A stretch of DNA of 64,000 nucleotides from Escherichia coli (GTDB taxonomy: Bacteria; Pseudomonadota; Gammaproteobacteria; Enterobacterales; Enterobacteriaceae). How positions within the stretch are numbered: position 1 is the first letter of the stretch; each line of letters starts with the position of its first letter. The notes below the pieces were generated by a model that saw only the letters and a list, made by a program, of their open reading frames with translations, ran no database searches and was not told where the DNA came from. Positions 16,659 to 16,674 of the stretch are shown piece by piece. A program made the translations under genes and the position numbers. The stretch lies in assembly GCF_046105845.1 (NCBI RefSeq), contig NZ_CP151004.1, one strand, 5' to 3'.

Positions 16659-16674
16659 TGTGATGACGATCACA
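16659..16674. promoter_or_regulatory. CRP-like binding site TGTGA-tgacga-TCACA in the hpt/gcd divergent region
   Basis: Perfect match to both CRP half-sites with 6-bp spacer; centre about 70 bp upstream of the gcd ATG. Confidence 0.6.

Follow-up and report, generated by a model that had tools for sequence, protein, structure and literature searches.

The hpt and gcd genes of Escherichia coli are transcribed away from each other, and the short spacer between them holds a perfect palindrome of the TGTGA-N6-TCACA type. The locus therefore raises the question of whether this one element controls either gene or both and, if both, in which direction. Our reading, to which we give a probability of roughly 90%, is that the palindrome is a single high-affinity cAMP-CRP operator common to two back-to-back promoters, at which gcd is repressed and hpt is activated.

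The palindrome and its published record

In the window (the whole 64-kb stretch of DNA that was analyzed), hpt occupies 15994..16530 on the minus strand and encodes a hypoxanthine phosphoribosyltransferase of 178 aa, according to the open reading frame list and the RefSeq annotation of identical loci. On the plus strand, gcd occupies 16736..19126 and encodes a PQQ-dependent quinoprotein glucose dehydrogenase of 796 aa (open reading frame list, RefSeq annotation, and translation). The two ATG codons, at 16530 (minus strand) and 16736 (plus strand), agree with RefSeq and leave a divergent spacer of 205 bp. An upstream in-frame ATG at 16540-16542, which would extend Hpt by MVRDM, is not conserved between species, being ACG or GTG in other genera, and this supports the RefSeq start at 16530 for the 178-aa protein. 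Of 5426 complete E. coli genomes, 5424 carry the hpt-gcd region, with both genes annotated, and many E. coli chromosomes match the segment 16400-16900 at 100% identity. Among matches to the region in E. coli genomes, 3 of 5495 fall on plasmid-labelled records, and some genomes have two copies.

The operator core, TGTGATGACGATCACA (TGTGA-TGACGA-TCACA), lies at 16659..16674 with no strand assigned to it; it is an exact and unique match and is the same as the site in RegulonDB and in the SELEX data discussed below. The original prediction, made from the letters of the window, had placed a perfect TGTGA-N6-TCACA site with two exact half-sites at these positions, between divergent hpt and gcd, about 70 bp from the gcd start and about 130 bp from the hpt start. 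Each of these particulars was borne out: the core reads as predicted, with all 10 half-site positions matching; the open reading frame list and RefSeq put the divergent genes on either side of it; and its center, 16666.5, is 69.5 bp away from the start codon of gcd and 136.5 bp away from that of hpt, the latter distance being 129 bp if it is taken from the nearer site edge. The extended 22-mer, AATTGTGATGACGATCACACAT (16656-16677), agrees with the extended CRP consensus, AAATGTGATCTAGATCACATTT, at 16 of 22 positions.

Such a site is scarce in DNA of this composition. A scan of the whole window found the exact pattern once, as TGTGATGACGATCACA, and dinucleotide-preserving shuffles of the window gave a mean of 0.07 exact sites, with at least one in 6 of 100 shuffles. 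Beyond this one, the best that the window offers is a match with a single mismatch, and 14 more have two. A CRP-like sequence that deviates at one position, TTTGAGGATTTTCACA at 16279-16294, falls inside the hpt coding region and is probably due to chance. Within E. coli, 4760 of 5422 genomes match the window exactly over the 61 bp of 16640-16700; of two variant alleles that were examined, one is changed solely in the N6 center and the other solely outside the core.

The gcd-hpt CRP site is in fact an already known element of E. coli, where it is on record as a repressor site for gcd and an activator site for hpt. The RegulonDB rows reprinted by Shimada et al. in 2011 (PLoS One 6:e20081; PMC3105977, Table S4) read "gcd repressor -31.5," with AATTGTGATGACGATCACACAT, and "hpt activator -65.5," with ATGTGTGATCGTCATCACAATT, and both rows are identical to the window sequence, flanks included. 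In the same work, a genomic SELEX-chip screen with purified CRP and cAMP recovered the gcd/hpt spacer with TGTGATGACGATCACA (Table S3), gcd and hpt were counted among the known CRP targets that were also recovered by SELEX, and the pair was given as one of 11 divergent promoter pairs under a single CRP site. A dedicated study of this locus, by Izu et al. (2002; PMID 11810262, Mol Genet Genomics 266:865), concerns, as far as its title tells, control of hpt and gcd by cAMP and IHF, and that title stresses "partially overlapping regulatory elements." CRP binding (by genomic SELEX), the directions of the two effects, and the start positions are thus from the literature, the signs and start sites used here having been taken from the RegulonDB table as reprinted in 2011.

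Expression data agree with the repression of gcd. In a microarray study, the gcd signal was 3- to 7-fold lower with CRP*, which does not depend on cAMP, than with wild-type CRP (171 and 67, against 491 and 467), and gcd is among the genes that the authors report as downregulated by CRP*. In that study the presence of glucose in LB made no difference to the wild-type gcd signal (ratio 1.1), so that in rich medium native CRP may repress gcd to a modest degree.

The proposal that cAMP-CRP controls gcd and/or hpt from one shared site is therefore supported by RegulonDB, by SELEX, and by the title of the 2002 study; to it we add the direction of control, which the original prediction did not give and which is opposite for the two genes. 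Because the site, its regulator, and both directions of effect are already in RegulonDB and in the papers of 2002 and 2011, none of this is a discovery. It serves instead as a positive control for the scan, since a reader who had only the sequence recovered a real, experimentally supported operator together with its two targets. What is added here is a cross-species footprint with a base-exact spacing to the gcd -10 element and the observation that the site co-occurs with gcd rather than with hpt, which bears on whether the activation of hpt is direct.

Promoter geometry on the two sides

On the gcd side, a promoter scan returned the pair ATGACG-18-TATAAT, with 10 of 12 matches. The -10 hexamer, TATAAT, is at 16687..16692 on the plus strand. 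The -35-like hexamer, ATGACG, is at 16663..16668 on the same strand and lies inside the CRP palindrome, where it overlaps the N6 center and one half-site; the same pair of hexamers is listed for gcd by Shimada (2014). Because ATGACG is located in the variable N6, its sequence differs between species, and it is by position that the -35 assignment is supported. From the RegulonDB value of -31.5 and the center at 16666.5, we computed a transcription start at the G at 16698 (plus strand), which is 6 nt past the -10 hexamer and is invariant in all 23 aligned sequences. The operator and the core promoter of gcd therefore overlap, the -35-like hexamer being within a palindrome centered at -31.5. A second pair found on this side by the scan, TTAAAA-18-TAAAAT at 16679-16708, is a weak match.

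Between the CRP site and the gcd -10 element there is a conserved block, CATGTTAAA (consensus CTTGTTAAT), at 16675..16683 on the plus strand. The 3' flank of the CRP site, 16675-16680, has a column identity of 0.91, against 0.59 for the 5' flank, and the block probably reflects the promoter spacer together with the outer CRP flank. Two small conserved blocks can be seen beside the CRP site, CTTGTTAA (16675-16683, ~0.91) and AAAG (16648-16651, invariant or nearly so), for which outer CRP flank, promoter spacer, UP element, and IHF site are candidate roles.

This geometry suggests how repression of gcd could work. CRP centered at -31.5 would lie over the -35 region, 20 bp upstream of a perfect TATAAT, and would block RNA polymerase there, so that gcd would be repressed when cAMP is high and glucose absent. 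When glucose is available and cAMP is low, the glucose-oxidizing enzyme would be derepressed. We infer both steric occlusion, as the mechanism of gcd repression, and this physiological rationale.

On the other side of the spacer, an extended -10 element of hpt, TGGTATACT, can be read from the sequence at 16608..16616 on the minus strand, in agreement with the RegulonDB position of -65.5. Its plus-strand columns, AGTATACCA, have an identity of 0.95, and its TG (CA on the plus strand) is invariant. The sequence at the -35 position, CCGCGA, is a poor match, and a poor -35 combined with an extended -10 is in keeping with a promoter that gains from activation. The transcription start computed from -65.5 is at 16601 (minus strand), 7 nt past the -10 hexamer. 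The same CRP dimer that would cover the gcd -35 region would thus sit at about -65.5 for hpt, upstream of the extended -10 element and its poor -35, and with CRP recorded as an activator of hpt, purine salvage would be expected to rise when cAMP is high. The calculated starts of gcd and hpt are about 97 bp apart.

At classical class I promoters, CRP is centered near -61.5, -71.5, -82.5, or -92.5, where it shares a face of the helix with the polymerase. The hpt site does not fall into this series, its center at -65.5 being about 4 bp out of phase with -61.5 and -71.5 (Gaston et al., 1990; Busby and Ebright, 1999), and inspection of the sequence found no alternative hpt -10 element that would place the site at either of these two positions. 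The RegulonDB list reprinted in 2011 (Table S4) is heterogeneous, and the part of it that was checked has another activator entry at -65.5, that of sfsA. The position at hpt is thus atypical, although with a precedent, and is not anomalous by itself.

A consensus scan for IHF gave several matches with one or two mismatches. The best candidate, the IHF-like sequence TAGCAATTAATTA at 16689..16701 on the minus strand, has one mismatch to WATCAANNNNTTR and overlaps the gcd -10 element and start, so that its conservation is confounded by that of the -10 hexamer. One-mismatch matches around the gcd -10 element, start, and 5' UTR are at 16701-16689 (minus strand), 16708-16720 (plus strand), and 16723-16711 (minus strand). 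This cluster of candidate sites, 16689-16723, fits the title of the study by Izu et al., which implicates IHF.

Conservation of the site and its association with gcd

The comparison between species drew on 80 hpt loci, one genome per species, in which gcd was located by tblastn. An intact gcd N terminus divergent from hpt was found in 23 of the 80, in Escherichia, Citrobacter, Enterobacter, Leclercia, Cedecea, Pseudocitrobacter, Phytobacter, Siccibacter, Mangrovibacter, Shimwellia, Pseudescherichia, and Pluralibacter. All 23 of these loci have a CRP site with no more than one mismatch, and in 19 the site is perfect. The N6 centers differ widely among them (for example, CGTCAT, CGGAAT, GGTTGT, GGGTAT, and ATGCAT), so that it is the half-sites, and not the bases between them, that are constrained.

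The same picture emerges column by column when the window is aligned with 22 of these spacers (23 sequences). Identity is 0.99 and 0.98 in the two half-sites and 0.59 in the N6, compared with 0.72 over the whole spacer; it is 0.98 in the gcd -10 hexamer, 1.0 at the gcd start G, and 0.95 in the hpt extended -10. In every one of the 23 aligned sequences, exactly 20 bp separate the CRP center from the gcd -10 element, and this distance is kept as well in loci L023, L004, and L019. The corresponding distance to the hpt -10 element ranges from 52 to 54 bp across the alignment and is 53 bp in the window, and that to the hpt ATG is near-constant, at 136-137 bp, wherever gcd and hpt adjoin. In the window, then, the site lies in a 205-bp spacer at 20 bp from TATAAT and 53 bp from TGGTATACT, a promoter location compatible with regulation. 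The half-sites and the gcd -10 spacing are under strong purifying selection, and conservation of the half-sites spans about 14 enterobacterial genera.

Where gcd is not beside hpt, the picture is different. A site with no more than one mismatch was found within 300 bp upstream of hpt in 1 of 54 such loci, at a different position, and about 0.5 sites would be expected by chance in these 54 by calculation. In Pluralibacter gergoviae (L023), a gene on the gcd strand for a class B acid phosphatase of 249 aa (PF03767, E = 4.9e-35; 1528-2277 of the locus) stands between the gcd promoter and hpt; the CRP site is still 20 bp upstream of the gcd -10 element, and hpt has a -10 element and no CRP site. 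In Citrobacter youngae CCUG 30791, Citrobacter sp. FP75, and Klebsiella sp. BIGb0407, gcd is absent from the locus, and hpt has kept its -10 element and has no CRP site. Since hpt lacks the site where gcd is absent or is separated from it by an inserted gene, the element follows gcd and not hpt. The -10 element retained by hpt in loci L003, L008, and L014 (two Citrobacter and one Klebsiella sp.) reads, on the plus strand, AGTATACCAG in L003 and L008 and AGTATACAAT in L014.

Deletions have also altered this spacer and its surroundings. In Escherichia albertii NBRC 107761 (L001:2100-2506), about 2 kb are deleted, from just past the hpt-proximal TGTGA to near gcd codon 662, with the junction AATTTGTGA|AAAGAAACGCATTGGTACGCCG; most of gcd is lost together with its promoter and the second half-site, and the hpt -10 element remains. 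A soil metagenome-assembled genome, "Proteobacteria bacterium CTSoil_132" (L004:2150-2506), has an internal gcd deletion that joins approximately codon 24 to the vicinity of codon 662 (GGAAAAAACGTATTGGTACGCCGCAGGAC), keeps the promoter and a perfect CRP site, and ends in the same region as the E. albertii deletion. The shared end may mark a place where deletions recur, or it may be an artifact of assembly. In three loci from genera without the gcd-linked site, Erwinia, Pantoea, and Plesiomonas (L034, L061, and L065), a putative TGTGATAAACTTCACC-like motif with one to three mismatches to the CRP core lies about 37-40 bp upstream of the hpt ATG.

Weighing the alternatives and comparison with known systems

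The off-phase center at -65.5, the variable 52-54 bp to the hpt -10 element, and the retention of an hpt promoter without a CRP site together make direct activation of hpt less secure than repression of gcd. The site might accordingly be in essence a gcd operator, with hpt activated indirectly and without the class I contact between CRP and the alpha C-terminal domain, either by removal of polymerase from a strong, partly overlapping gcd promoter or through a changed IHF-dependent architecture. We regard this as possible, if unlikely. The observations that speak for it are those just named, set against the invariant 20 bp on the gcd side: in P. gergoviae the site has stayed with gcd and left hpt without one, and the gcd-less Citrobacter and Klebsiella loci keep the hpt -10 element with no CRP site. 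To these may be added the two polymerase footprints, whose upstream edges would overlap at about 16643-16656 if the starts are as calculated, and the words on overlapping elements in the title of the 2002 study. They have to be set against the entry of CRP in RegulonDB as a direct activator of hpt, the treatment of the pair by Shimada et al. (2011) as co-regulated by one CRP molecule, the near-constancy of the distance from the site to the hpt ATG, and the existence of other activator sites in RegulonDB at -65.5, such as that of sfsA. A related, historical version, which we likewise hold to be doubtful, is that the operator arose and has been maintained as a repressor site for gcd and that the stimulation of hpt by cAMP is a by-product of the common spacer. 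If true, such an origin would explain both the off-phase position and the occurrence of hpt without a CRP site where gcd is absent or displaced.

In two further explanations, the site would not be used by CRP alone. That the palindrome is a product of chance, a structural hairpin, or an RNA element with no regulatory role seems to us to have a negligible probability. A short hairpin can form, and the shuffles did yield perfect sites at the low frequency given above, but half-sites conserved over about 14 genera around a variable center are the signature of protein binding, the hairpin energy is no better than that of shuffled sequences (z = -1.14), and binding of CRP has been published. Moreover, the site lies upstream of both calculated starts and is thus not transcribed from either, and a search of it against Rfam gave no match at E-values up to 1; with the absence of an Rfam match and the z score of the hairpin, we rejected the RNA or hairpin reading. 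Sites of the CRP/FNR family resemble one another, and CytR acts at some promoters of nucleotide metabolism, the area to which hpt belongs. The main user of the site might, on such general grounds, be another member of the family, or a CytR-CRP nucleoprotein complex, rather than CRP alone. This we consider very improbable, although less so than a chance palindrome, for TGTGA/TCACA with a 6-bp spacing is the CRP pattern and that of FNR is TTGAT-N4-ATCAA, the spacer has a single CRP site where CytR-regulated promoters typically have tandem ones, and the SELEX experiment was done with purified CRP and cAMP.

The reading of the palindrome as one CRP operator for both promoters can be placed among systems already described. 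The closest is the gcd/hpt CRP site of E. coli K-12. The two are in fact one element: they agree over the 16-mer and over 10 bp to either side of it, they occupy the same spacer between the same genes, and the window shows no sequence difference from the annotated K-12 site. Taken by itself, the gcd side resembles CRP-repressed promoters recorded in RegulonDB, namely pncB (-37.5), galE P2 (-36.5), metY (-19.5), and lpd (-18.5), in having a CRP center within the region from -35 to -10; it differs from them in its perfectly palindromic operator, which also serves a divergent promoter as its upstream activator site. The hpt side resembles the class I promoter lac P1, where CRP is at -61.5, in its single upstream CRP dimer, its weak -35, and its recorded activator. 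The CRP center is, however, 53 bp (52-54 bp) from the -10 boundary at hpt and 49 bp from it at lac, and hpt also has an extended -10. Considered as a pair, gcd-hpt shares with araBAD-araC, gltA-sdhCDAB, guaBA-xseA, and xylAB-xylFGHR (Shimada et al., 2011, Fig. 4A) the arrangement of one CRP dimer in a short spacer that serves two promoters. Its two outputs are opposite in sign, repression on one side and activation on the other, and here metY-argG offers a parallel, CRP likewise being a repressor of one gene and an activator of the other.
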